Shown piece after piece: positions 274 through 63,705 of a stretch of 64,000 nucleotides of DNA. A program made the translations under genes and the position numbers. The notes beneath the pieces are model-generated. The model was not told where the DNA came from and did no database searches. It was given only the letters and a program-made list of their open reading frames with translations. This DNA is from Amoebidium appalachense (taxonomy: Eukaryota; Protista; Ichthyosporea), in NCBI GenBank assembly GCA_963693365.1, contig CAVNZM010000004.1:9080468-9144467 (forward strand). The letters are read 5' to 3'. Within the stretch, counting starts at the first letter, position 1, and each line of letters opens with the position of its first letter.

Positions 274-12867
<12,594 letters not shown>

Positions 12868-14902: not shown

Positions 14903-15912
14903 TTACTTTCCCATGTAAATCAAATCGGCTTCTGAAAACTCACCGCGGTCATCCCCGTTCATCGTTTTGATGTAGGACCACATCTCCACAAACTTGTGCG
15001 GCTGCAGTGAACGAAGCAGCTTGGCAAGATCATACCTGCATATTCGACAAGTTCGTTTTAGTAATATAGAAACAAACATCTAATATTACAAACAGCTGTA
15101 CCGGTGATATTTGTGGTGGTGGTGGTGGGGCGGGGATGGGGATGGGGATGGGGATGGGGATGGGGGTGGGGGTGGGGGGTGGGTGGGGTGGGGTGGGCTG
15201 GGGGGGGGGGGGGGGGGGGGGGGTTATGGCCAAAAGTACGCAGACGTGCTGAGCGAACACACTGATAATCGTGCTCTGCTAAAGCGGGGAAGGAAAAGAA
15301 CAGTGTGTGTGTGTGTGTGTGGTGGGTGGGGGGGGGGGGGGGGGGGGGGGGGTGATGTATGCGTTAGAGGGTTGGAAATATGGAGGAGACAACAATATTC
15401 TATTAAACTAATTAACATCTCTTCCCTAATATTGAATGATTTAATTGTACTCTTTAAAACTGTTCTTCTCATTTTTCTCTTACCTACTATTGAATAATTT
15501 AATTATACTCCTATTATAACATTGAATGATACCATTCAATTATACTCCTATGTTTTAGTAACATAGTACTGGATTCCTTACTATACATGATAAATATGTT
15601 TAATTACAATTTAAGATTCTTATAAACAATTCTTGATCTGCTAAAACTCCAATTTTCCAGATTTGCCACTTTCTGGATTAGCAACAACAAAACGCCACAA
15701 AAGTGGGAAAATCCAAAATCAAGCAATTTAAGCGTGCAGGCAGAAGACACTTGAACAGAGCCCATCATCAGGGGGGTTCCTATGCCTCCACAAAAGCATG
15801 GGTTTCGAGGGAGGGGGGGGGGCAAATGAAAATAAGTGAGGCCGCATTCTGATTCTGAATGTGGTGGGCAATCTACTATTGGTCATTTTGTGTATTGTGT
15901 CTGTGTGTGTGT

Positions 15913-19799: not shown

Positions 19800-21269
19800 A
19801 TGAAGGCCAAATTGCTTTTGCAGCGTCCGGTTTCGCTGGCCCTTTTTACCGGCTTTTTTTTGTTTTTGTATTACGTGGGCAGCAGGGGTCGCAGACACGA
19901 AGTTTCTGTCCCAAAGCAAGTGTCTGCACTTGGCCACTTTCAGGGCTACAACGTTAAAATGGGTCCTGAGTGGGACCAATTCAGCAAGGCGTGCTTTGAC
20001 CACTGGGACACGGTGGGCCACTATTCGTACGAAGTCGCCACAAAAGCGTGGGGTCACCCACCATCAGAGGGTGCTTCTGAGGGCGGGGAATATGCCGAGT
20101 ACGTTTCGTCCAAGCTGGTGCTCACCTTCACAGACCAGCAAGTGCGAAACTTTATCAAGCGCCAGGAGACGACCAGGTTGAACGAAGGTAAGCCCAGGCT
20201 TGTTGTCAAGTCTTGGCACTTTTTGCTCTGTCTGGTTGGACAATATAGCCCAATCCCCCCCCCCCCCCCCCCCCCCCGCGCCTTTTGCTTCCTTCCCCGT
20301 ATACTTCTTTGAAAGGGAGGTGCCGTTCTTTTCCCTCGGCCTCTCTCTAGCCTCTCCTTTGAGCCGTTGTGATATTCCTTGGCAATTTGCCTTCTCTGGA
20401 TGCAGAAGCGGGGTTATGACATTGTTCCAGCCGAAACCCCGCCATAAAAAGCTGTGAATGTTCAGGCTGGGGTTTTTTCCGGGTTGAAATGGGTGACCAG
20501 CAGTTAGTTGTGGCGGTCTGGCTCCTGGGAAGTCAGGGTTAGCAGTGTTTCGGTATTGACATATTCCTTTTCTGCAGGGGAAGGTGCCTTCCACAACTAC
20601 CAGGGCAAGTGGATTAAGCTGTTCCATGACGGCATCACGGGCAAGCACATTGTTGATTACGGCAGTGGTTTCGGCATTGAAACTCTTCAGTTTCTGAGGG
20701 CCGGCAATCGTGTGTCTTTGGCGGACATTAACATGGACAATATGAACGCTGCAGAGCGCATTATCAACGTTGCAGGGTACAAGGTGGAGCGTAAGATCCT
20801 GATTAGTGACCACTATCCGTTTTTCGAGTACGATCCCTCTTGGGAGAAGGTTGATATTTTCTACTCCAACGGTGTTCTTCACCATAGCCCTCGGATCCGA
20901 CATGTGATGAGACGGGCGCACGAAGTCGTCAAATCTGGCGGGCAGATGATTCTCCTTCTGTATTCCGATCTCATGTGGGATCACTGCATGCGCTGGTACG
21001 GCCCAGCCAAGGAGACGAGCCCTCGCATCCCACCCATAGATGAGGAGGTACAGGAGAATCCCCGCATGTGCGACTTTGTTGTGTGCGCTGACAAGGTTGG
21101 GCACTATGCCGACTGGTACAGCGCAGAGAAAATCGCTGTTGTTTCCCATGGTTTCTTCGAGGTTCAAACATACGACTATCTCACACCAAATAATGCATTT
21201 TGTGCAGTCACTTTGAGTAGAAATGATAACGCTTTTGACCCTACAAAGATTACCACAAAGTTGGATTGA
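19800..21269 (+). CDS. Type II membrane class I SAM-dependent methyltransferase (MTase 2), ~359 aa, 2 exons; paralogue of MTase 1
   Basis: Exons 19800-20187 (GTAAGC donor) and 20578-21269 (TGCAG acceptor) are in phase. Signal anchor LALFTGFFLFLYYV. Motifs IVDYGSGFG, VSLADIN, VDIFYSNGVLHH, VKSGGQMILLLY. Confidence 0.9.
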
Positions 21270-27381: not shown

Positions 27382-28404
27382 TGATGATGGGCTCTGTTCA
27401 AAGTGTCTTCTGCCTGCACGCTTAAATTGTTTGATTTTGGATTTCCCACTTTTGTGACGTTTTGTTGTTGCTCTTTGTTGTCTCCTCCATATTTCCAACC
27501 CTCTAATGCATACATCACCCCCCCCTGCTTCTGCTTACTGCTGCAACTTTAACCCCCGGCCTTTCCCACTGCCCTTGCCTGCATAAGCAACCCTGCTCGT
27601 CTCTGATCAAGACGGGTGACCTACCCATGTTCAAGTGAAACAGTATCTGAGTTGGGTTTCGTTAACGAGGTGAATAGGTCGAAACTCGGGTACTGTGGAT
27701 GACGTGGGCCCCCCTGAGGATGGGCTCTGCTTATTATGCATACTCTTTATGTATGGCTTGCATTCTGCATCGTGTTATCCGTTTGTTCTTGTGTACTTCG
27801 TACTTTTTGACGCATTCAAACCCCCCCCCCCCCCCTGCCGCGCGGAGAACGGGCTTGGCATATTTTGTATACTCCTTATGTGTGGTTTGCACTCTGCAAT
27901 CTGTTGTCCGTTATTTATTGTGTACTTTGTACTCTATAACGCATTCTAACCCTCCCTCCCCTCCCCCCTCCCCCCCCCCCCCCCAAAAAAAAAAAGAAAA
28001 AAAGAAAAAAAGAAGGGGAAAAAAAAGCACCTTCTGTCCCTCCTGTTACGAATGGTCTTGTTTTTCTTGGCCACATTAGCCACCCCGAGTAGTCTGTTAT
28101 TTCTCTATAAATATTAACATGCTTGACCCTAGAACTATGACACGATCAGCAGCAATCCCGATAGGTGCTTTGCCCTGCCCGTTTTTGGCCAGCCATCTGC
28201 AACGGCACCACGGCCAGCCACCAAGCAGCAATTATTGGAGCAGCTGCAAAGGGGACAGGTAAGGTGTTTTTTTTTTTGGTTTTTTTTTTTTTTTTCCAGG
28301 GGAGGGGGGGGGGGGGAAGGAGGGGCAAAACAGGCAACCTTAGAGATGTGTTTGGATTGAAATATCTGTGTTTGTTCACCTCTTGTGAGCCTTGGCTCCT
28401 TCAG

Positions 28405-29208: not shown

Positions 29209-29807
29209 TCCTTATGACCCACCCATGTTCAAGTGAAGCAGCATCTGAGTTGGATTCTGTTGACGAGGTGAATGGGTCGAAACTCGGGTACTTTGGTGGA
29301 CTTGGTGGGGCCCTGATGAAGGGCTCTGCCTATGATGCACTGCCCTTTGTGTGCTCGCACTCTGCATTGTGTTGTCAAGCATTCAAATGCGTACTTTGTA
29401 TTCTGTAACACATTCTTAAAACTCCTCCCCCCTCCCCCCTCTCCCCATCCCCCCTCTCCCTCCCCCCTCCCCCCTCCCCCCTCCCCTCCCCCTTCCCCTC
29501 CTCCCCCCGCCCCTCCCCCCCGCCCCTCCCTCTCCCCCCCCCCCTTGCAGACTATTGCGCTAAACGACAGCCTTCGGCCCACACACGGTGCTGTCAATCA
29601 TCAGGCGTGGGCCGAAGCGGGCCACTGGTACCCAATCAACTACGACTATCTCTTTGAGGCATACTGTGTGCTGTCGCTGAACCGCTTGCCCATGTTCGAG
29701 GAAGGCCCTGCGACAAAGGGGTTCGAACGCATGGCTTACACCTTCTACCTTGACCAACTGGGATACGACTTTCAGGTGGGTGTTTGGGTGTGGGTGTGGG
29801 TGTGGGT

Positions 29808-33810: not shown

Positions 33811-40535
<6,725 letters not shown>

Positions 40536-42301: not shown

Positions 42302-42535
42302 AAAAATAAAAAATCCGCTGTTGCAATTGTGTGCCGGTTGTGTGTAATGCACATCCAATCAAATCACAGATCTAAAATACATATCACATGTGCATCTGTT
42401 CAACCGACAGGCCGAAAACGGTAAACTTTGGCGCGGTGTGTTTATTTTTTTTGTTTCGTTTCCTTTTGCCTTTTCTCAAAGCACACACCTCACGCGATAA
42501 GACCATTTTGCACGTCTGAACGGCTGTTAGCTAGC

Positions 42536-43636
42536 ATGGCGGTCAGCCTGAACCGTTCGCTTGTGCACTTCAAGGGAAACTCCCTGCAGACGCTGGTTGT
42601 TGCAGTGTTTGCGTGCTTTCTGGTGGTCACTCTCTTTTCCTTTTCCCATAGAACGACCATAACAAGAAATGAAGAGAGTACTTTGTCTCCCACAAAACCC
42701 GCCGCCAACGGAGAAAAGGCAGAAGACGCCTTAAAAAGCACCGAGCATGACGTAGGGGACGATGTTGGCGATCGCTCATATAAGCTTCACCAAAAGGCAA
42801 TGCGTTTTTACCACAACAACGGGACAGAATGGAACCGGGACATTCGTGAGTCCTGGTGGAACGAGGACACGATGGACTTCTGGAAGAACGATGAGGTGCA
42901 CAAGCTAGTCGACCCCATCCTGGACACGTACAAGAAGTCCTCATGGATAACAGTCGGCGACGGGCGGTATGGGACAGATGCACGTTATTTTTTCAAGAAG
43001 GGGTACGATGTTACTGCTACAGACATAGTTGACGACATGTTGGCAGTGGCTAGTGAGCGCAAATTTATCGGAAAACACCGTGCACTGAACGCAGAGAATA
43101 CCGGTTTGCCGTCTGGCACGTATGACTTTGTGTACATCAAAGAAGCCGTCCACCACTTCCCTCGCCCCCACAGCGCCTTGCACGAGTTGTTGCGTATTTC
43201 CAAGCACGGCCTCATGTTTACCGAACCTTTCAGCAAAGGAATAGAGGGCAGTCCTGGCCCTGAAGGTGCTAATTTAGACCCGGCACGTCATGTTTGGGAA
43301 GGAAATGGCAACTACGTGTGGAGAACTAACGCCGATGAAATGCTTCGTGTCGCGCTGGCAGCATCGCTCGAAGCAGTGGCATTCAAAGGTTCATACGAGT
43401 ATTGTTGCTTTGAGAATCTCGAATTTGAAAAGGCTGTAGAATCTAATCCTAAGTTTGTCGAGTTTAGAACCAAGCAGGCAGAAGGGAACAAGGGAAAGAC
43501 ATGGAACCTTATTTCTGTTCTGTTTTTGAAGTCTGCGCAGGCACGTTGCGATTTGGCCGAGCCTCTGCGGAAGGCTGGGTGGAATTTCATTGACGTTCCA
43601 TGGCATCCACGTCTTGGTCAAAAGAGATCTTGCTAG
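42536..43636 (+). CDS. Intronless type II membrane class I SAM-dependent methyltransferase (MTase 3), 366 aa
   Basis: Single ORF from ATG 42536. TM LVVAVFACFLVVTLFSF. Variant motif I WITVGDGRYGTDA, then VTATDI, LNAENTGLPSGTYDFVYIKEAVHHFPRPHSALHELLRIS (Methyltransf_11-like). Confidence 0.9.
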   Translation: MAVSLNRSLVHFKGNSLQTLVVAVFACFLVVTLFSFSHRTTITRNEESTLSPTKPAANGEKAEDALKSTEHDVGDDVGDRSYKLHQKAMRFYHNNGTEWNRDIRESWWNEDTMDFWKNDEVHKLVDPILDTYKKSSWITVGDGRYGTDARYFFKKGYDVTATDIVDDMLAVASERKFIGKHRALNAENTGLPSGTYDFVYIKEAVHHFPRPHSALHELLRISKHGLMFTEPFSKGIEGSPGPEGANLDPARHVWEGNGNYVWRTNADEMLRVALAASLEAVAFKGSYEYCCFENLEFEKAVESNPKFVEFRTKQAEGNKGKTWNLISVLFLKSAQARCDLAEPLRKAGWNFIDVPWHPRLGQKRSC

Positions 43637-44465
43637 TCCTTTTTTTTTTGCGCCCTTTTTAGGTTTCAACCGCTTCCCAAATGTTCTGTTTTCCTTCTCA
43701 AACAGTGAGTACCATTAACTTTGTCCCTTGCCACGTCTACGTAGACGGCATGACCTTGCTTCTCACCGAAACGCGTGCACACTAAGAGCACACAGGCAAT
43801 TCAGCACTTACGAACATACAAACATCCACGAAGAGAAAGGGGAGGGAGGGGGGGGGGGGGGGAGGTGGGTGAGTGAGAGAGAGCGAGAGAGAGAGAACTA
43901 CTCACACGATGTAGATACTAACACTCTGTAGATACTCTTGATACATAAGGTGGTTGGGAAATTCTCCTTGTGCAGAGTGTTTGCCTTCCTGCGTTAGGTT
44001 AGTGACTGGACTCTGCCATCTTACACAGCGTTTAAATAATGTGCACTAATACAGAACACAAGAAAATAGTAGGTTGAACTCCAAATTTATTCTTCGTGTG
44101 CATTGTTAATATACACAAGCACTTCGACCAAATGCAAAGTAGAGTCGGTAATGCTGAAGACTAATTAATATTATCTTGAAACAATAGCAAGGCTTTGTTT
44201 TGTATATATAATGCTGTGATGGCATTACGTGTTGTGCGTTGTTCGAGCACATATATATAACATTCGGCCCATAAAAATCATATATGAGGCTAATCTACTA
44301 ACATTTTATGTGGTGCTGCGATGATGTACATATCTATTGATCAGGAGTGCGCGTATAGTAGCAAGAAACAGAACCCACTAACGTTTGTGGACATCTTGCC
44401 AGCAGGGCAGTTCAGATCCCCCCCAACCCTCCGACCCCGAACGCCCCCCCCCCCCCCCCCAGGGG

Positions 44466-44614
44466 AATAGGTCGAAACTCGGGTACTGTGGATGACGTGG
44501 GCCCCCCCTGAGGATGGGCTCTGCTTATTATGCATACTCTTTATGTATGGCTTGCATTCTGCATCGTGTTATCCGTTTGTTCTTGTGTACTTCGTACTTT
44601 TTGACGCATTCAAA
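44466..44614 (+). repeat. Structured repeat subtype A (5'-truncated), downstream of MTase 3
   Basis: Essentially identical to 27672-27820. Confidence 0.85.
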
Positions 44615-49642: not shown

Positions 49643-50122
49643 TGTAAACAGTTGGACTAGTTAGGATAAGGCAGAGTACAACTGAATCAAAATAAAGACA
49701 GAGAACGGGTAGAAAGGCACACGCGGCCAGGTTGCTTTTACTATGGGCCGACTCAGTCTGTCTCAGACTTCACTGATGTGATCCCCGTACTGGGACGGCT
49801 TTCTTATATAGCCCCCAGGTTTCGGATCAAGGCCCAGGATTGGTTCATCCGCGGCCAGCGCGGGTGGCAACATGCCATTCGTGATTCTGGTGCGGTCCGA
49901 GCCAGTCAGACCTTTGTCCTATTTATGCAAACCTCTTATTGGTTCACTTCGTTTATGTGGTATGCAGCTGAAGAACCATATATGGTTCAATTCTTAGGTC
50001 AGAGTGAGTCCTATTGGTGCGGACATAATATTTATGTGATATTCATGACAAAGCACGAATCGTGTGCTAGTAGATCACATTCTTTAGTAAACATGTACAG
50101 TTCATGTGTACAGTTGTTTACA
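49643..50122 (-). repeat. 3' LTR (480 bp)
   Basis: Direct repeat of 52717-53196; TG...CA termini; minus-strand TATA-like GCTATATAAG near 49803-49812. Confidence 0.95.
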
Positions 50123-52716
50123 CTCCCCCCCTTGTCGGGAGCCTGGTGGTGTCGTTAGACAAGCAAACCACCAGGCTGAGAGGCGATAAACAACCTTCAG
50201 CGAGAATTCTTGTGTGTGCCGAGCTGCTGGACAGAACAGAGCAAGGACGGTGGAATAGAGTTGTGCACGTCTATGAGCACTTCTTCATTTGCCAAAACGT
50301 AAATTCATGCAGCATTCTTCTGTGATTTCATTTTCGTGGCGAAGATTGTTGCAGAGTGTGCGTGCGAATAATTCGCTAAGCCTTCGTCTCTGTGCTTGGC
50401 TTTTCTGTAGAAGTAGTATTTTCCTTTTTGGGAATTTTTCCTTTTTAGGATACTCCCGCAGATTCGTTTTCAATTGCGAGTAATTTGGTTGTGTGGATGA
50501 ATGATCATACCAAACATTCGATAATGAATATAACTCGAGCCTTAGGTCACTTCGTAGCTCAGGTAGTGGTGGATAGCTTCAAGGCTTAGCCACTGCTCCT
50601 TATCCCGGTTCTACCATAAGACTGTAAGGCGAGTCACCATGGCCGGAAAAGCCGCTTCTTTCATGAACAAATAGCACTTCTTTCCTTTCAGCTTTAACTC
50701 TGCATCATCGGAGCTGGGAAAAACATGAATAAAAATGCCCAAGTGTTCTTCGTTGGGCGACATAAAGAAATATATCACCCGTCAGAACCAGTAAAAGCCC
50801 GGTTCATAATTCATAAGAAGAGGGTAGGCAAAGCAAGCCTCCTTCAGAAAACACATGCTTCCATTCGTGAGCAGTTTTCGTATCCCATTTGCCAGCCATT
50901 TTCGTTGAGCAGGGGGATTCCAGGCATAATACATTCTTCTGGAGGCTTGGCCTAAAAAGAAAAGTCGTCGGAGTCGCCCTTTCTTTTGTAAGCAACTTCG
51001 TGAGCGCGCTTCGTGTTTTCATATCCTCCAGTGCAGGTCTGGATGGTGCCCCATCCTCTGCTTCATTTGTAGGTGGCCCTACTGTAGGTTCTGTTCGTTG
51101 TGTGGAATACCAAAACCATTCGTATTCGTGGAACTGCTTTGTGCTGTGCTTTCTTTCGTGTTGGTGTTCATGAAGTTACCCCGTTCACACACCCTACTTC
51201 TTACATACATTAGATGTAAGTAGCTGCCTGGTGAGTGTGTGGTTCGTGTTCGTGGCATTCTTCTGTTCCTTCGTGAGAAGAATATTCGTTTTAGCAGAGG
51301 TGCCCAATAAGGCAGCTTGTGGGGTTGTCTCCCGCATGTGCCCATTGGTGGGGTATGCACGTGCTAAATTGTTACAGTGTCATCATATTGCAAGGGAATA
51401 ACATGGTCACCTCCGTACCAGGGCCTAGTAGGTACACATGATGGTCCGATGTGTTAGTCAACAACACCTTGCATTCGTATTCGTATTTGTCTTCCACGTC
51501 ACTTTCTTCAGTAGTGAAGGAGGGTATTCGTAATTCGAAACTGAAAGGCTTCCAGCCAAAATACTGACACTGTATGATGGGGTTGTGAGGGAGCGGTGCC
51601 CATACCACATTCTTTTGTTCTGGTGGGGGTGTGCCGGCAGCTAGTGCAAGGCTTGACAGTGTAATTGGTATGTTACACCGTATTGCCACAGACGGGCATT
51701 CACCTTAAAATTCGTACCCAACACCTTCTTTGTTTTTCACATGCATGAACAAAAGTTCTGCATCGACTTTATTACATGCCTTTTGTGCACCAAGAGTGCA
51801 AATTCGTTAGGGCGTGGCACCAGGAAGGGCCGCCATACATGAGTCAGGCATATGTTCGTAATGTGTTTAGGCATGCCAGCATACATTCATGCGCATGTTG
51901 TGCATCCTGGGCGCTAAACTATGGGGCATGCTGTATTCGAGAACAGCAAGGGATTCGAAGCATGCATGCAACACTACTTTCATAAGATCTTAGGTCCTAC
52001 ATGCTATAGCAACAGCGACTATCTTCTTCGTTAAGTGCATTTGTGCTGAAAGTGGCCGTGCATCTGGCTTGCGAGTGTGGACGTGCATGCGGTGGCATGG
52101 ACACGATGGCAGTGTGCAATAGGGCAATGCACGCAAGGGCAACGGTTTTATTTTCTTCCTAACATAGAGGGGGCTGTGTGCATTGCAACCCAAGCAGTGT
52201 TGTGCATTCGTCCTTTCATTTTCGTATTTCCAGTTCATTTTGCTTTCGTTTTTCGTTTTTTGTCGTTTGATAACTTCGTTACTTCGTTTTGTTTTCGTGT
52301 TGCATTCATTTCGTATTTCCTCTATGCAATCGTTTGTCGTTAATTCTTTATTTCATTGCGTATTCGTGATGGTTCGTTTTTCGTTGGTTCATTGCTTCGT
52401 TAGCAATTCTTTATTCGTTTGTTCGTGTATTCGTTGTTTCGTTGTGTATTCGTTTTTCTTCACATTTTTGATGTGTCGTAGCAAAAGAAGTTTTACATGC
52501 TTTCAATTCTTTCCGTGTAGGTGGGCTGGCCACTTCAAACTTGTAGGTGTATATATTCTAAGCCGGACAAGGAAAGATGTGCCTATCATCGGGGTAAAAA
52601 GGATTGTGATCGGCCATGGGAGATTCTTGAGCTGATTGAAAGATGTGAGATTCTTGAACTGATTGAAAGATGTGAGATTCGAAGGATGCGAGATTCTTGA
52701 ACTGCGCGGTCGCCAA

Positions 52717-53196
52717 TGTAAACAGTTGGACTAGTTAGGATAAGGCAGAGTACAACTGAATCAAAATAAAGACAGAGAACGGGTAGAAAGGCACACGCGG
52801 CCAGGTTGCTTTTACTATGGGCCGACTCAGTCTGTCTCAGACTTCACTGATGTGATCCCCGTACTGGGACGGCTTTCTTATATAGCCCCCAGGTTTCGGA
52901 TCAAGGCCCAGGATTGGTTCATCCGCGGCCAGCGCGGGTGGCAACATGCCATTCGTGATTCTGGTGCGGTCCGAGCCAGTCAGACCTTTGTCCTATTTAT
53001 GCAAACCTCTTATTGGTTCACTTCGTTTATGTGGTATGCAGCTGAAGAACCATATATGGTTCAATTCTTAGGTCAGAGTGAGTCCTATTGGTGCGGACAT
53101 AATATTTATGTGATATTCATGACAAAGCACGAATCGTGTGCTAGTAGATCACATTCTTTAGTAAACATGTACAGTTCATGTGTACAGTTGTTTACA
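52717..53196 (-). repeat. 5' LTR (480 bp)
   Basis: Direct repeat of 49643-50122, adjacent to the PBS. Confidence 0.95.
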
Positions 53197-53709
53197 GGTG
53201 TGTGTGTGTGTGTGTCTGTGTGTGTGTGTGTGTGTATGTGTGTTCGTGCGTGCGTGAGGGGGGGACCCTTGTTCCCATACTGTTGCGAATTCTGGGCTGT
53301 GTCATTACCTGCATATATTACATTAATAAACCTCGTGAGCCTGTTCTGGGTGTTTGACCAGAATAATATAGTAAAGAAGCACGCCGACGTGGTGCCACAT
53401 AGCAAATAAAATCCACTAGATTACACACCGTTTGAGCCCCATTAATAACGACGATGGTCTCAGCACAAAGCCTTTTCCGTTCACATAATCTGATGTTTCT
53501 GCATTGAGGCCGCTCACCGTAAGTCTTCATTTTTTACTTATAAACGGACTTCAACATAGCATGTGCCATAGTCAAAAAAATCTGCCATCCACCGGCCGAA
53601 AGCCAGTCAATTCCGACAATGATCACATCATCACATGAGCACATCACCACTGAGGGGGAGGAGGGCTGGGTGGGTCAGGGTACATAGGAGGGCTGGGTGG
53701 GGTAGGAGA

Positions 53710-54169
53710 GGCCCCAACCACATAGGCAGAGTCAACTTGCAAACTTTGAAGCAGAATTATTCTGCGAAAGCGGAATTATTCTGTAAAAAGCAGAATTACT
53801 CAGCAAAAGCAGAATTATTCTGCAAAAGCAGAATCACTCTACAGTAGACATGCTTTGAAAATTAGCAGAATATTAATTAATTATTCTGCTTTTAGCAGAA
53901 TTATTCTGCAAAAAGCAGGATTATTCTCAGCGGCTTTCGACAGCAGAATAATTCTGCTTTTAGCAGAATAGTTCTGCTTTTAGCAGATTGATTCCTCTGT
54001 TTGCAGAATAATACTGCTTTTAGCGGAATCATTCTGCTTTTGAAGAATAACTCTGCTTTTGCAGAACAAATCTGCTTTTCAAAGTAATTCTGCTTTTAGC
54101 AGAATATTTCTGCTTTTTGCAGATTAATTTTGCTCGAAGCGAGTTGACTCGGTCGATGTGGTTGGGGCC
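53710..54169. mobile_element. Foldback/MITE-like element filled with ~20-bp palindromic GCAGAATTATTCTGC subrepeats
   Basis: ~31-bp imperfect TIRs (GGCCCCAACCACATAGGCAGAGTCAACTTGC / GCGAGTTGACTCGGTCGATGTGGTTGGGGCC). Flanks GTAGGAGA/TTAGGAGA match 7/8, a possible TSD. The subrepeat array is inverted about the centre. Confidence 0.75.
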
Positions 54170-54991
54170 TTAGGAGAAGGGGAGGGGGAGGGGGGAAGGG
54201 GCCGGGGCTGGCCTGCAGGTGAATTCGAATCATAGTACATGAATGGAACGCATCGCACACCACCACCATTGTTTGCTGCAGCGCCTCTACTAGAGTTGCC
54301 GTAGCGCACCCTTAGAAGCAAACCCCTGGGTTTCTGTTACCTCATACCATAAACGCAACCCCACGGCTCCATTCCACGTGCACCATGATAGCCCACATGG
54401 CAAGGCTTAATACACAGTGCCACGTATTACTAACTTGAGACGCCGCTAGCAGCTTTGTAATTATAACCGAATCCAGTATAGTGCCGCCAATGATTGTGTT
54501 CAAGTAATGTCAGCTTGAAGTATGTACAATCCCGGTGGATACTCAGCAAGTTCCGCCATGTCTGTACATATGACATTGTCACAAGATTATAATCTAATTA
54601 CGAAGCCTTGCACACAAGTCTCTCGTGTAGATATGTACAAAAGTAGGGCCGGTGCCCATCTAAATATTGTGATGCTCAAGCTTAAAAAGACTTTAACGTA
54701 ATACTAATGTCATAACGGTTTTCTCAGTATGACGGCCAAACACCCAAAATCAACTTTAAAATATATGGCTACATTAACTTTTTTTCAAACTAAGGATTGT
54801 GCTGTGTGCACGTCAACGATTATAGCGATTGATGTCAGGCTGAAGTTTTAGACGAATTAAAGAAAACTCTGCCAGTGTTTGTGGCCGCCTAATTTACTCA
54901 ACAAGACACCACATGAGCCAGTGTATATAGATAAATAGTGTGGCGTACCCCCCCCCCCCCCCCCCCTCCCCTCCCCCCCCTCCTCCCCCCA

Positions 54992-55088: not shown

Positions 55089-56612
55089 CTAGATGCGGAA
55101 ACGACCAAGCATTGGCCTAGGCTTTTTTCGTGAAAGTGTTTCCGAGATAACCCGATGTACATCACCTACCAAACCAGGAATTGCTTGAGAATTCAAAAAT
55201 CCAACTTCGCCTTCAGGCCCTGTGGTAAGAATTATGGTATGATACATATCGAGATACCCAGACAGACCATAGTAACCTGAATCAAGGTGGGGGCCCATTA
55301 GCTCTATAACCGTTGCGCCTGGTGGTGCAAAGACAATGTTGACCAAACCCTGCCCATGAGGCCCCACCACTATTTTGGCGCGGGAAAAAATCTCCTTTGT
55401 CTGGTCTAGTGTGTGCTCGGATGGAACAAAGAGAACAAGTTCGTAAGGCGGTACGAGTGCTGACTTTACGGCTTCAACTGCAATAGCCTCGTCTTCAAAT
55501 CTGCGCCGCGTTGCATCCTCGCGGGAAACGAAAATGACAAGGTTTCTGCGGTCAGAGGGTGGCCACTTGCCCTGTATGACGCTCCTGACACGGAGAAACC
55601 CCTCCTTGGACATGGTTAGAAGGTCCGGAGTTGGTGGTGCCGGATACCAACCGTGAACCAATAAACTCTTGGCATGGTAGAGGACACCACATTGAGCCAC
55701 CACAATCCGTGACTGGGGCAAGCCAAGACGGTCCAAAAACCAGAATATTCTCTCGGCATTTTCTTCCTCCGGTGCTATTCGCATCAGCATTTTCACCTCG
55801 GGGTGCTCCTTTAAGTACGGCAACAGAAGGCCGATCTTCGACAGGGTCTCCAGAACAAAATGACTAACGTGGTCCGTCCATACTTGTGCAAAATTGAGGA
55901 GCACGTCGTAGTTCTCAACCCTTGGAGGCGTTGTGATGTTCACATGTTCTTGTCGAAGCACTCCAAACTTGGGCGGGCTTGTTAGTTCCACCTCGCGGTT
56001 AAAGTACGAGACGACTTCCCACGGGTAGTTGACATCGCTGTGAACCATGACGTAGCCGCCAGAAATCGCAGAGACAAAAAAATTCTGGCCGCCATTATAC
56101 TCGTTAAGTTTCCGTTCGAAAAACTTCAAACAGGAGTCTAACTGCTTGGTAAGTGATTGGTTGGTCGCAATGTGTGGATTGTCACGGTTGGCCACAGTTA
56201 CCGGTGGCATCGCCAAGGAATCACACACCGCGTTGTACAGTAACGGGAAACTTGTGCTCCAAAAAGTATTCTGAATTCTCAGGCTCATGAGCTCGCCATC
56301 AGTCACAGCTTTCAGATCCGCCTTAACCTCTTCGCTCGTCACATCCCGTGCTGTATGGAAGACTTGCCAAGAACGATTCAGCACCCATTCTCTTGGCGAG
56401 AAATCGGACACAAAACGTGCTTGCGGAAGAGACAGACACTGGAGCTCTAGCTCTGTTAAAGATCCGGAGGAATGTGGCAAAAAGTCACTAATGAGACCAA
56501 GGGAGTTAACGGAAAACAAAAACACGCTAACTATCAGAAATGCCCATAAGCAACAAACGGTCACGGGTTTTGCCCAAGTGTGCTGGGACGAACACATCGT
56601 GGCTGCTTGCAT
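55089..56612 (-). CDS. Intronless type II membrane glycosyltransferase family 61 (DUF563), 507 aa
   Basis: Uninterrupted ORF. TM VCCLWAFLIVSVFLFSV. HVSHFVLETLSKI, IFVSREDATRRR, and the GT61 signature QTKEIFSRAKIVVGPHGQGLVNIVFAPPGATVIEL. Confidence 0.9.
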   Translation of the reverse strand: MQAATMCSSQHTWAKPVTVCCLWAFLIVSVFLFSVNSLGLISDFLPHSSGSLTELELQCLSLPQARFVSDFSPREWVLNRSWQVFHTARDVTSEEVKADLKAVTDGELMSLRIQNTFWSTSFPLLYNAVCDSLAMPPVTVANRDNPHIATNQSLTKQLDSCLKFFERKLNEYNGGQNFFVSAISGGYVMVHSDVNYPWEVVSYFNREVELTSPPKFGVLRQEHVNITTPPRVENYDVLLNFAQVWTDHVSHFVLETLSKIGLLLPYLKEHPEVKMLMRIAPEEENAERIFWFLDRLGLPQSRIVVAQCGVLYHAKSLLVHGWYPAPPTPDLLTMSKEGFLRVRSVIQGKWPPSDRRNLVIFVSREDATRRRFEDEAIAVEAVKSALVPPYELVLFVPSEHTLDQTKEIFSRAKIVVGPHGQGLVNIVFAPPGATVIELMGPHLDSGYYGLSGYLDMYHTIILTTGPEGEVGFLNSQAIPGLVGDVHRVISETLSRKKPRPMLGRFRI

Positions 56613-57115
56613 CTTCAGTGACTGATGTCAAGGGGACCCGTACCTGCTGTACTGTGTTACACCGTCTGACACGCGCGGAGGAAGTTTTGATGCCACCAAC
56701 CGTTTGCTCCAATCAAAATCAGTCACTGAAAAGCTAACCCCAACTTTTGGGAATGGTTTGCTTGCAGCTTCGTCGCTGGGGATCCAACCGATCGAATCGA
56801 TTAGTGTTACGGCTGCTACATGCCTTCATAGCTCTAATTTTTCAAGGAGACGCGGACGATACGGAGAGCGGCTGATTACGTGAATCACCTACCCTTGACT
56901 CAGCCAGCGTCGATTTATCATACATAGGCTAGAGGACACAGTCAGTACCTGCCAGGTGTAACGGTAAGTCGGTGACGGTCTTCGGTATTGCGGAAAACAA
57001 AGTTGGCCCTTTATCTTACCGATCGGTCTGGTCGGGCCTGCCGCGGCAATAGTGTGGTCGTTCTCCGGCGGTTTCTACCAGCGGGGCTAACCGGCTTCGT
57101 AATCATGTGACACCA

Positions 57116-61234: not shown

Positions 61235-63705
61235 ACTCTCTCGCTCTCTACCCACGCTTACACAGGCGCATGCGTGCATCACTGTGCGTGACCATGGTAC
61301 CTGTTGGCCTGTATGATGTGCTCTTTGCAGAAGCGCATACACACACGTGTGCCTTCACACCAGTACAACCACATGCACAATTTAGCAATATTATGCTAGC
61401 GATTGACACATTTGGGTTGTTTATTGTCTGTTTCGTTAACCAGCAATATCTTGTTTTTAAAAAACATGCGGGACTTTGTGCCCTTGATTGCGAAGTGAGT
61501 TCAGGGCACTCTTGATGGCAACAATAAGTAGAATAAGACTACAGTGTTCTGGGTATACAACAGCTCAAATAAGATCAGGGTGCTTTAATAAGGAAAATAG
61601 TTAAAAGATACATACCCTGACGTGGTGAAATTGCACTATTTTATGAATTCCTTTCAAAGAGCATCTAGACTAACAACCATTTTTCCAACCATACAGTTCC
61701 CGGGGTGGAGAAAGTATCGCTCGCTGCACACACACTGGCCAATCTTCCGTCAGCTGTTGTCGTCGACAATCACGCAACCGATTTGGGTGCTCCTAGAGAA
61801 CTCTTACCCTCTCCATCTTTACGCTATTTGGAATCACTCGCCGCCCGTGGTTTTTCCCCGCTGGGAGAGCGTCGCGGTCATCGACAGGCAACCCATGTAT
61901 TCTTTGTAGACTCTGCACCTCAGGCGATTAAGATTAAAGATGAGTTTCTGCGTGTGCCGGCAAACGATAGACTTTTGCTTGCGTCTGGGCGTGATGGGTT
62001 TTCCACCTGCAATGCAGCTGTTCTGTTGGGCCTGGAACAGTCTGTATGCCCCCCCCCCCCCCCCCCCCCTCCACCAAAGAAAATTGCATTGCTTTTGCGA
62101 TCACTCTAGCAGTAGTATTTTGAGAAAAGCCACGGTACACAAGGGTTGCTATTGCAGTTTGATGCAGTCCTGTTGTTTGCGACGCAACGTATCATCCGAT
62201 TACTGCAGAGCCCCCCCCCCCCCCCCCCCCCCCCCCCTCCTTCTAGGGTAGATGGACCCTGTTAATGATGGATACCCTGTGCGTGTTCTTTGCGAAATCT
62301 GCCTTATGGTGTTCGTCGTGAATGTGCACTTTACACCCTGTGGCACGTTCTATTCCCCCCCCCCCCCCCCCCCCTCTTGTGCCCTCCCTGAAGATGGGCT
62401 CTGCTTATGACGCATACTTTGCGCATGGCTGATGTTGCATACTTCAATGTTTGCCTTTGCATGTGTCCTGCACGATGCTTCTCATCGTGTATGCGTACTT
62501 CGTATCGTGTTTTGCATTTAAACCCCCCCAGTCTTCTTTCAGAGGTGTCCTTTCAGGACAGACCACTGTGTGGAGACATCTTTACTTCCATGCAACCGGG
62601 CATGGTTGCTCTGTGTCGTGCATCTGTAAGCACATACGCATTTTTCGCTGCACTGCATTATTTTGCACACACACCTTCACCGTTTTGCTCACCTTGCTTG
62701 CATAAGCAACCCTGCTCGTCTTTGATCAAGACGGGTTGACCCACCCAAGTTCAGTTGATGCTGCTGTCTGAATTGGAGCGTCGTATATACGCGGGCTAAG
62801 GGGTCGAAACTCAGACGCAATTGATGACTTGGGCCCTCCCTGAGGATGGGCTCTGCTTATGACGCATACTGTGCGCATGGCTGATGTTGCATACTTGAAT
62901 GTTTTCCTTTGCATGTGTCCTGCACCATGCTTCTCATCGTGTATGCGTACTTCGTACCGTGTTCCGCATTCAAACCCCCCCCCCCCCCCCCCCTCTCCTC
63001 CCCCCCCCCTCCCGCCCCCGCCCTGGCCGCCCACCCGCCCGCCCGCCCGCCTGCGTGCACCTCTTCATAACCTGGGAAGCAAAAGCAAAGGATAAGAATA
63101 AAAGCAACATGGGAAAGAAAGAAAGCCCAGAAGTGTGGGTGCCATTGGTAATGGAGGAGTGAGGGAAAAGAAAGAAGGTAAGCCAAATAACAGAAAGAGG
63201 GAGGGGGAGAAGGAGAACAAAGTGCACAAAAAAGCCCAGCTAGTGCTGTTGATGTTTACCTTTGTACGACAGCTAAAGATGGAGGAAACTTGAAGATAGT
63301 ACTTTTTTTTGTTTATATGTCCTGTTCGGGCTGACACTTGTTGGGGACTAACAAAAAATAACCTATCCAGGAATGGGCCTATATCTACGATCTACACCTT
63401 ATCGAATGCTTCAGCCGCGCGATCCGATATGTCGACATTGTATCTGAGGTTATGTCCGGTGTGCAACGAGTACTTCGTGCAGTGGGTGCCACACACCTTC
63501 ATGTGGTGGTGGATGGAAGTCCGGCATCTTACGGCGCGGCCCTTGGTGCTTCTATAACAGGTGTATCAGTCGATGGAATAGGGATAGGAGTTGAGTGCAT
63601 GTCGGCACTATGTTCTTTAAGTTGGCTGGCGAAACAGGACGGTGGGATGTCTGCCGGTGGTCGAGCTATCGCAGTGCCAATTAGCAACGCGCAAACTGAA
63701 GACAG
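57609..63705 (+). CDS. Type II membrane GT-A/GT2-like glycosyltransferase resembling the plant At5g60700-type family; continues past the right edge
   Basis: In-phase exons 57609-57901, 58520-58736, 59718-60001, 60483-60607, 61697-62043 and 63371-63705; a small extra exon within 62044-63370 cannot be excluded. [39 protein letters not shown] and a DxD-like motif in [22 protein letters not shown]. The family call is from remembered similarity only. Confidence 0.7.
62692..62974 (+). repeat. Intronic structured repeat, full-length subtype B
   Basis: Near-identical to the reverse complement of 12163-12410. A second, 5'-truncated B unit lies at 62385-62523. Confidence 0.85.

Follow-up and report, generated by a model that had tools for sequence, protein, structure and literature searches.

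Genes and copies of the repeat in the window

The window, by which we mean the whole 64-kb stretch of DNA analysed, harbors several genes, other mobile elements and a dispersed repeat family. A nucleotide-sugar transporter was located at 40384-33814 on the minus strand by a four-block tblastn match. For its near-identical database protein, the nearest named homolog came from the ichthyosporean Sphaeroforma arctica (60% identity, 402 bits), with the best animal homologs modestly behind at 399 and 383 bits. The window is eukaryotic, and its host is, by this comparison (one gene, no tree), likely an ichthyosporean or a similar protist. Three long single-frame genes (20508-21269, 42425-43636 and 55089-56627) encode two SAM methyltransferases and a glycosyltransferase 61. 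The protein encoded at 42.4 kb had 21 homologs, all of them 28-37% identical to it, and those named by organism were bacterial. This sequence pattern suggests a bacterial transfer into a glycan-modification cluster with the sugar transporter.

A young LTR element was found at 49643-53196, with identical 480-bp LTRs (TG...CA) and a 5-bp target duplication. PBS-like and polypurine tracts place it on the minus strand, and its 2.6-kb interior has no ORF of at least 125 aa; it is likely non-autonomous. At 53709-54170, an inverted array of a 19-20-nt self-complementary unit resembled a MITE or foldback element.

BLAST with six subtype queries recovered 21 loci of the repeat, 3520 bases in total. The 3' ends were common to all loci, and the 5' ends were variably truncated. 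Runs of at least six C lay within 30 nt of 18 of the 21 3' ends and 14 of the 5' ends, compared with 7% of random windows. The loci were grouped in same-strand blocks (21/21). C/G runs of at least 8 also switched strand in blocks, apparently along gene direction, with C on the sense strand, and part of the intronic C-runs may have served the repeat family as targets or be left over from it. Additional short 3'-tail copies accompanied longer copies at 12081-12129 and 8027-8207 (minus), with C-runs between, a pattern that repeated priming at oligo-C, or template jumping there, would produce.

The initial annotation had described the repeat as intronic. For the copies at 36.0, 36.6 and 39.4-39.7 kb this is supported: they lie between transporter exons, in sense orientation. 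Support was weak for the 27.6-kb copy, which is placed between colinear exon-like segments matching Glyco_transf_49 (E 0.017 and 0.011).

Subtype B forms a 453-nt head-to-tail unit. The locus 62376-62975 starts with a tail fragment and continues with a whole unit; the tandem in the window comprises only ~1.3 units. In a contig of run X14 (another organism code, record 9), position 62972 was joined directly to 62520, and run X2 contigs also contained tail-to-head joints of subtype B. The junction-spanning contigs had the family base at position 62519, not the base private to the 62376-62975 locus. On the strength of these joins, subtype B is, as far as sequence can tell, a head-to-tail or circular unit. 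Its longest open frame was 104 aa, and an ORF of the Naiad/Chlamys type, with N-terminal GIY-YIG plus RT, was absent from the unit. A Pfam scan of 15 of the 137 ORFs in the window identified no Penelope RT. Subtype A contigs of 776 and 783 nt extended ~500 nt further 5' than the reference copy, and the subtype A unit may be longer than this copy. Summed contig depths in runs X13 and X2, used below, are not copy numbers.

The 5' truncation, the partial tandem and the microsatellite (oligo-C) target are all traits of Naiad/Chlamys PLEs. The carrier is likely a non-autonomous Penelope-type retroelement, related to Naiad/Chlamys.

Table 1 Positions of the predicted structural elements in the subtype A copy, and of further copies in the window.
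Feature	Position	Strand	Basis or remark
Subtype A copy	27527..27821	+	5'-truncated; family contigs of other runs reach further 5'
Helix X 5' strand (outer part 7 bp, inner part 3 bp); predicted first extra helix, A9/G10.1 break	27583..27593	+	MFE
Predicted second extra helix: hairpin Y of 8 bp, immediately before G10.1	27595..27617	+	MFE
Stem II 5' strand, G10.1 = 27618	27618..27623	+	Weak Rfam alignment with 27675-80; compensatory variants at matched depth
K-turn C-helix 5' strand (arm)	27624..27633	+	One bulged base at 27630
K-turn bulged strand L1-L3, G1b, A2b, A3b	27634..27639	+	Rules in PMC8191799
NC helix = extended hammerhead stem III 5' strand	27640..27652	+	U16.1 = 27652
GUU cleavage triplet	27651..27653	+	Predicted cut 27653/27654
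Stem I 5' strand	27654..27656	+	3 bp in A; 4 bp in B, G-C/A-U covariation
10-nt perfect palindrome, predicted dimerisation site	27659..27668	+	
Stem II 3' strand (C11.1 = 27680) + GAAA (G12-A15.1)	27675..27684	+	
Stem III 3' strand + K-turn non-bulged strand (G3n, G2n, A1n 27697-99) + C-helix 3' strand	27684..27708	+	
Stem I 3' strand + CUGAGGA core (C3 = 27714) + extra U	27711..27721	+	
Helix X 3' strand	27722..27734	+	MFE
3' tail + oligo-C run at insertion end, subtype A copy	27735..27835	+	
Diverged A-like copy C	29213..29425	+	Has the core; stem I of 2 bp; damage in the 3' strand of the K-turn
Subtype A copy, 5'-truncated	44461..44614	+	
Subtype B partial tandem (B1)	62376..62975	+	Tail 62376-62529, then unit 62520-62972
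B1 core	G10.1 62738; predicted cut 62774/5; G12 62806; C3 62840	+	
Subtype B copy B2 (12.3 kb), core intact	12165..12409	-	G10.1 12401, U16.1 12366, G12 12333, C3 12299
Subtype D copy D1	5155..5392	-	K-turn with different bases, GAAA region damaged
Subtype D copy D2	15680..15810	-	Starts just before GAAA; CUGAUGA intact
Old copy E in transporter intron	39385..39745	-	C-runs interrupt copy

Kink-turn motif and hammerhead blocks

The kink-turn (K-turn) that the initial annotation had read in subtype A was recovered in full. Its C-helix (27624-27633/27700-27708) has 9 bp and one bulged U. This is followed by the bulge AGU (27634-36), GA (27637-38) facing GA (27698-99), an A.G pair (27639/27697) and a 14-bp helix in which 14 of 14 positions (27640-27653/27683-27696) can pair, two as G-U. 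All elements of a standard K-turn were thereby found: C helix, 3-nt bulge, tandem G.A/A.G and NC helix. In subtype B (62744-62833) the C-helix, the bulge GUU and the U.U pair were confirmed, and an imperfect stretch of 5-6 nt separates U.U from the 9-bp helix that had been drawn directly after it. The bulged base is C in the 12.3-kb copy, as described, and the palindromes of both subtypes and the enclosing helix were also seen in the sequence. The hairpin loop, given as UGAUC for both subtypes, is this 5-nt sequence only in B and has 7 nt in A.

A loose K-turn descriptor alone performed at chance level (26 matches in the window, against a mean of 26.4 in 40 shuffles), and the folding energies were unremarkable (z of -1.18 for A and -1.94 for B). 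What exceeded chance was the retention of the K-turn at one position across diverged copies, together with the hammerhead blocks around it. By descriptor, its position was shared by A, B1, B2 and the 7.07-kb copy, and in subtype D it was recognized by eye. The proposal of a structured RNA selected at the RNA level, carrying a standard-geometry K-turn, was counted as supported, and the motif had no match in Rfam at the gathering threshold, in line with the failure to assign it to a known family.

Statements on PMC8191799, PMC5689011, PMC10085705, PMC3088659, PMC8557442, PMC7229834 and 10.64898/2026.07.22.740005, here and below, refer to the covered parts of these sources. The repeat shares the 3-nt bulge and the tandem G.A/A.G with the standard K-turn (Huang et al. 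2021, PMC8191799). The 3b:3n pair is A:G in A and D, a type that the rules of PMC8191799 class as ion-folding and N3; in B, unlike A and D, it is U:U. The -1b:-1n pair is A:U (A, B) or U:G (D), in place of the C:G common in standard K-turns (PMC8191799). By these rules the A and D K-turns should fold in ions. K-turns of box C/D type need an L7Ae-family protein to fold (PMC5689011), and by analogy the K-turn of B may need one too.

The K-turn motif is present in the sequence, but the initial annotation had overlooked the hammerhead-type motif around it, to whose stem III it adds an accessory bend. Three hammerhead core blocks were recognized in subtype A: GUU (27651-53), GAAA (27681-84) and CUGAnGA (27714-20), in a non-circularly permuted order. 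In every intact copy, GUU closes the long helix, GAAA lies on the opposite strand and CUGAnGA follows 33-35 nt further. CUGAnGA, GAAA and an NUH triplet with A15.1-U16.1 were intact in A, B2 and C. Position N7 was G, U or A across copies, the remaining letters of CUGAnGA being kept except in D1, and stem I covaried from G-C to A-U between A and B. GUU was the family majority in subtype B contigs. With G10.1-C11.1, the formable stems comprise 3-4 bp (stem I), 5-6 bp (stem II, in the split reading described below) and 9-13 bp (stem III).

A scan for all six block orders gave two loci (27.7 and 12.3 kb), both S-G-C. The other five orders, including the circularly permuted ones of hammerhead types I-III (CGS, GSC, SCG), were not found in the window. 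None of 60 shuffles matched the S-G-C descriptor, which, like the split-core descriptor used below, was set after inspecting the window copies and tuned on them. Copy B1 fails the S-G-C descriptor only through a private stem III change, and the family majority restores the broken pair, with G in 305457 of 305667 depth (run X2). Taken by itself, a hammerhead-type architecture is, by our estimate, quite probable. From this model, the RNA is predicted to self-cleave after GUU.

A probable split core and the readings of the repeat

The stem GACC/GGUC forms 5-6 bp in A, B1, B2, C and E, and is damaged at that place in D1. Read as stem II, it leaves the core split between A9 and G10.1 by two extra helices. 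In the contiguous alternative, the GGG that follows CUGAnGA can form two pairs before it meets a G.G mismatch, and this stem was less stable than the split stem II in both comparisons (-2.2 vs -6.7 and -5.4 vs -8.7 kcal/mol). Position 5 of stem II covaries between copies (U-A to C-G), and the two variants occurred at matching depth in run X13 (1423 and 1490). The Rfam Hammerhead_1 model weakly aligned GACC with GGUC-GAAAC (14.2 bits, E 2.4, below the gathering threshold of 34). The split-core descriptor found three loci in the window and none in 40 shuffles. In a pair count, 85.5% of 242 cells were paired and 11 of 49 pairs had changed on both sides (0/500 shuffles); this count is descriptive only, covering 12 related fragments with a structure derived from copy A, and is inflated, the old copies E and F being partly mis-registered.

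We infer that GACC/GGUC is stem II, so that A9 and G10.1 are joined via helices X and Y and not directly. Both helix X and hairpin Y appeared in the MFE structure of copy A, where they would separate A9 from G10.1. Helix X was invariant in the two copies that hold it, and no covariation was found in helices X and Y (2-3 copies in the window). The resulting four-way junction is a model drawn from the MFE structure and a by-eye comparison with Naiad records. Known hammerhead alignments show at most 1-2 nt inserted between CUGAnGA and its stems (PMC10085705), and core insertions of only 1-2 nt are also described in PMC3088659. A split core would be without tested precedent in the literature covered.

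Between stems I and II lies a perfect 10-nt palindrome, different in A and B (shuffle p = 0.0075 for A and 0.011 for B2). The palindromes are weak as hairpins (-1.4 to -2.6 kcal/mol) and strong as homodimers (-14 to -18 kcal/mol). Copy C lacks the palindrome, and D1 has 6 nt only (p 0.23). In hammerheads, helix III stacks on helix II and helix I runs parallel to II (PMC4209133). Here 17 bp of the extended stem III separate the K-turn from the core, the arm beyond the K-turn has only 9-10 bp, and the links to the ends of stems I/II are 0-3 nt long. A crude rod model (2.8 Å per bp, 50 degree K-turn) left a gap of 54-59 Å, compared with 30 Å for the short octopus form described below. Given this gap, the 17-bp distance and the short arm, a single molecule probably cannot close. 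Rough geometry and subtype-specific palindromes together suggest a dimer, and cases in which cleavage depends on dimers are described for Penelope and satellite hammerheads (PMC4209133).

Our main reading, to which we give a probability of about 0.58, is that the repeat, with its core order cut site-GAAA-CUGAnGA, is likely a non-autonomous Penelope-type (Naiad/Chlamys-related) element, with an RNA predicted to cut itself at GUU by way of a split-core hammerhead that two copies would build together. The palindrome would be the pairing site of two RNAs. The arm of each would lend its CUGAnGA and G10.1 strands to the cut site of the partner, in a mutual exchange. Cleavage of tandem transcripts at GUU would yield unit-length RNA, possibly ligated to a circle. 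A Penelope-type RT/endonuclease supplied in trans would copy this RNA, primed in oligo-C tracts, leaving truncated and partial-tandem copies. No locus among the 21 begins at the predicted cut, and six begin upstream of it (BLAST ends are imprecise); contigs of the sequencing runs also cross the site. This fits a circular template and leaves no footprint of cutting.

A stronger version of the main reading is tentative, and we hold it to be possible but doubtful. It states that the active site is obligately built from two molecules and four strands, with the palindromes choosing the partner; that it is an overlooked ribozyme of N-terminal-endonuclease Penelope elements in animals and an ichthyosporean-like protist; and that only transcripts that are paired or in tandem are cut, giving circles of unit length.

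The same absence of copies beginning at the cut, the contigs spanning it and the unfavourable monomer geometry would also be expected if the fold were derived from a hammerhead and no longer cut, with a role in retrotransposition as a structural signal or a protein-binding site (for RT recognition, dimerisation or an L7Ae-family protein). Some Penelope hammerheads have low or no activity, with other functions left open (PMC4209133). We consider this unlikely, if worth keeping in mind: the catalytic positions, including the pattern of variation at N7 and H17, are kept across the subtypes and the Naiad records, which is hard to explain without catalysis.

Somewhat less plausible is a monomeric hammerhead of the ordinary, contiguous SGC type, in which the GGG following the extra U would build stem II and the GACC pairing would be an off-switch. 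The contiguous S-G-C descriptor did find A and B2, G10.1-C11.1 and a G-U pair can form in all six copies holding both blocks, and pairing resumes past the G.G. An extra nucleotide between A9 and G10.1 is moreover typical of Penelope hammerheads (PMC4209133). Such a stem II is, however, interrupted after 2 bp and is 3-4.5 kcal/mol weaker than the GACC pairing. In the by-eye inspection of Naiad records, the strand following A9 had its partner upstream (helix X) and was not complementary to the strand before GAAA.

A stand-alone K-turn RNP RNA or a SINE head (snoRNA-, SECIS- or tRNA-like) would account for the standard K-turn sequence, for the box C/D-like U.U at 3b.3n in B and for the many intronic copies in sense orientation. 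It is improbable, and leaves three hammerhead blocks unexplained. The orientation of the copies follows the strand of the C-runs, which may explain the sense bias in introns. Contrary to the "head" placement in the initial annotation, the motif is internal (nt 225-314 of the 453-nt subtype B unit) and lies in the 3' half of a 5'-truncated retroelement. No Rfam match reached the gathering threshold or an E-value below 0.4; mir-981 (E 0.42) and snoU82P (E 7.5) were regarded as chance matches.

Individual candidates of this kind were rejected as follows. The box C RUGAUGA, box D CUGA and single-stranded guides of a box C/D snoRNA were not found together in the sequence or through Rfam, box D and the guide being absent. 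SECIS elements have a UGAN/NGAN core and an unpaired apical AA, and reside in a selenoprotein 3' UTR; this combination was not seen, the apical region starts with GG without the apical AA, and the copies are dispersed and often intronic. ARAGORN predicted 0 tRNA genes in the window, which argues against a tRNA-derived SINE head, although degenerate heads could escape this search.

A permuted HDV-like ribozyme (GG, P4, J4/2, P2) is the least credible candidate: such ribozymes have a catalytic C in J4/2 and P3/L3 after P2, and although B and E show GG, a hairpin and then GCUAA or GCGAA before a P2-like strand, the place of the catalytic C is taken by U in copies A and C and by G in most of the X13 depth (10582/14942), no P3/L3 follows P2, and only 2 nt separate the end of P2 from the would-be cut.

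Relatives of the split hammerhead were found in none of the viral, metagenome or prokaryotic collections. One search of viral contigs gave 0 matches, and others gave 5, with a stem III of 2-3 bp only. The single match in metagenome contigs lay inside a bacterial coding region and had a 3-bp stem III. Of 18 matches in genome contigs, 17 were below thresholds and one was borderline (L024, stems 3/4/5); they were treated as chance, because the search pattern itself forces several pairs. A split-core or K-turn-bearing permuted hammerhead, or any permuted hammerhead in an ichthyosporean, was not found in the open literature covered.

Comparison with known systems

The type-SGC hammerheads (HRIMA-1 and variants, Eckert et al. 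2023, PMC10085705) share with the repeat the S-G-C order, the full core, the link between the stem I 5' strand and the stem II 3' strand, and the pseudoknotted core. Unlike them, the repeat likely has its core split at A9/G10.1, carries a palindrome in the linker and a K-turn in stem III, and is hosted as a genomic repeat by a eukaryote. The covered text of PMC10085705 contains neither "kink" nor "k-turn". As the type is defined, by a contiguous block C, the repeat is probably not a member.

Should the repeat cut, it would break the assumption of PMC10085705 that CUGAnGA and stem II are inseparable, and a eukaryotic genome would be shown to carry a hammerhead of non-circularly permuted order. 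This would also account for the Naiad elements reported without canonical hammerheads, and make the model of Penelope partial-tandem formation testable with a 160-nt RNA. The likely non-animal host, the long K-turn arm and the swapped palindromes together offer a natural monomer-versus-dimer test.

Naiad and Chlamys elements (Craig et al. 2021, PMC8557442) resemble the repeat in their 5' truncation, partial tandems and microsatellite targets. Many Chlamys elements have a (C)n target bias, and non-autonomous head-to-tail families occur (PMC8557442). Unlike these elements the repeat has no ORF, and its proposed kinship to the PLE clades is drawn from non-coding traits. The covered text of PMC8557442 has 0 mentions of Ichthyosporea. 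It reports no canonical hammerhead and no structure, and it flags 8 "HHR_half_core" cases, with core halves 35-50 nt apart.

By eye, we found the split S-G-C layout at the end of 8 Naiad consensus records in the PMC8557442 supplement, ~5 families of the 54 records listed: three from Acropora, two from octopus, the record before Naiad_Mley, and two whose header was not shown. This inspection covered 58 of 62 CTGATGA and 13 of 13 GTCGAAA places in the supplement; three longer strings for other N7 variants gave 0 matches in the part covered. The order is helix Y, G10.1 strand, arm, cut site, GAAA, arm, CUGAUGA, in a sequence unrelated to the repeat. Helix X was readable in seven of the records; in the one before Naiad_Mley it was not seen, and stem I has 2 bp only. 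The distance between bend and core is ~5, 6, 7, 10 or 13 bp. Only the two octopus records have a K-turn there, at 5 bp and with opposite polarity, compared with 17 bp in the repeat; the other records show a plain bulge. Two nematode records had the ordinary hammerhead order, and no Chlamys record in the covered part of the supplement clearly had the split layout. The record before Chlamys-1_dArm has a GACC/GGUC hairpin followed by GAAAC near its 3' end, with no adjacent CUGAnGA in the passage covered, and is possibly another rearranged core.

Non-LTR retrozymes (Cervera and de la Pena 2020, PMC7229834; Li et al. 2026, 10.64898/2026.07.22.740005) are non-coding units of similar size (150-450 bp, against 453 nt here), with one ribozyme motif per unit, head-to-tail joins and a proposed link to Penelope. 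They are defined by type I hammerheads in animals and by expression as linear and circular RNA of unit length, the circular form having been shown, whereas the repeat is known from DNA and contigs and is not type I: the six-order scan found no type I hammerhead in the window. A non-coding head-to-tail unit, as in retrozymes, was found for subtype B only. The repeat is not a type I-III hammerhead, nor a retrozyme as defined (type I), but it likely works in the way that the hammerhead does in a retrozyme.
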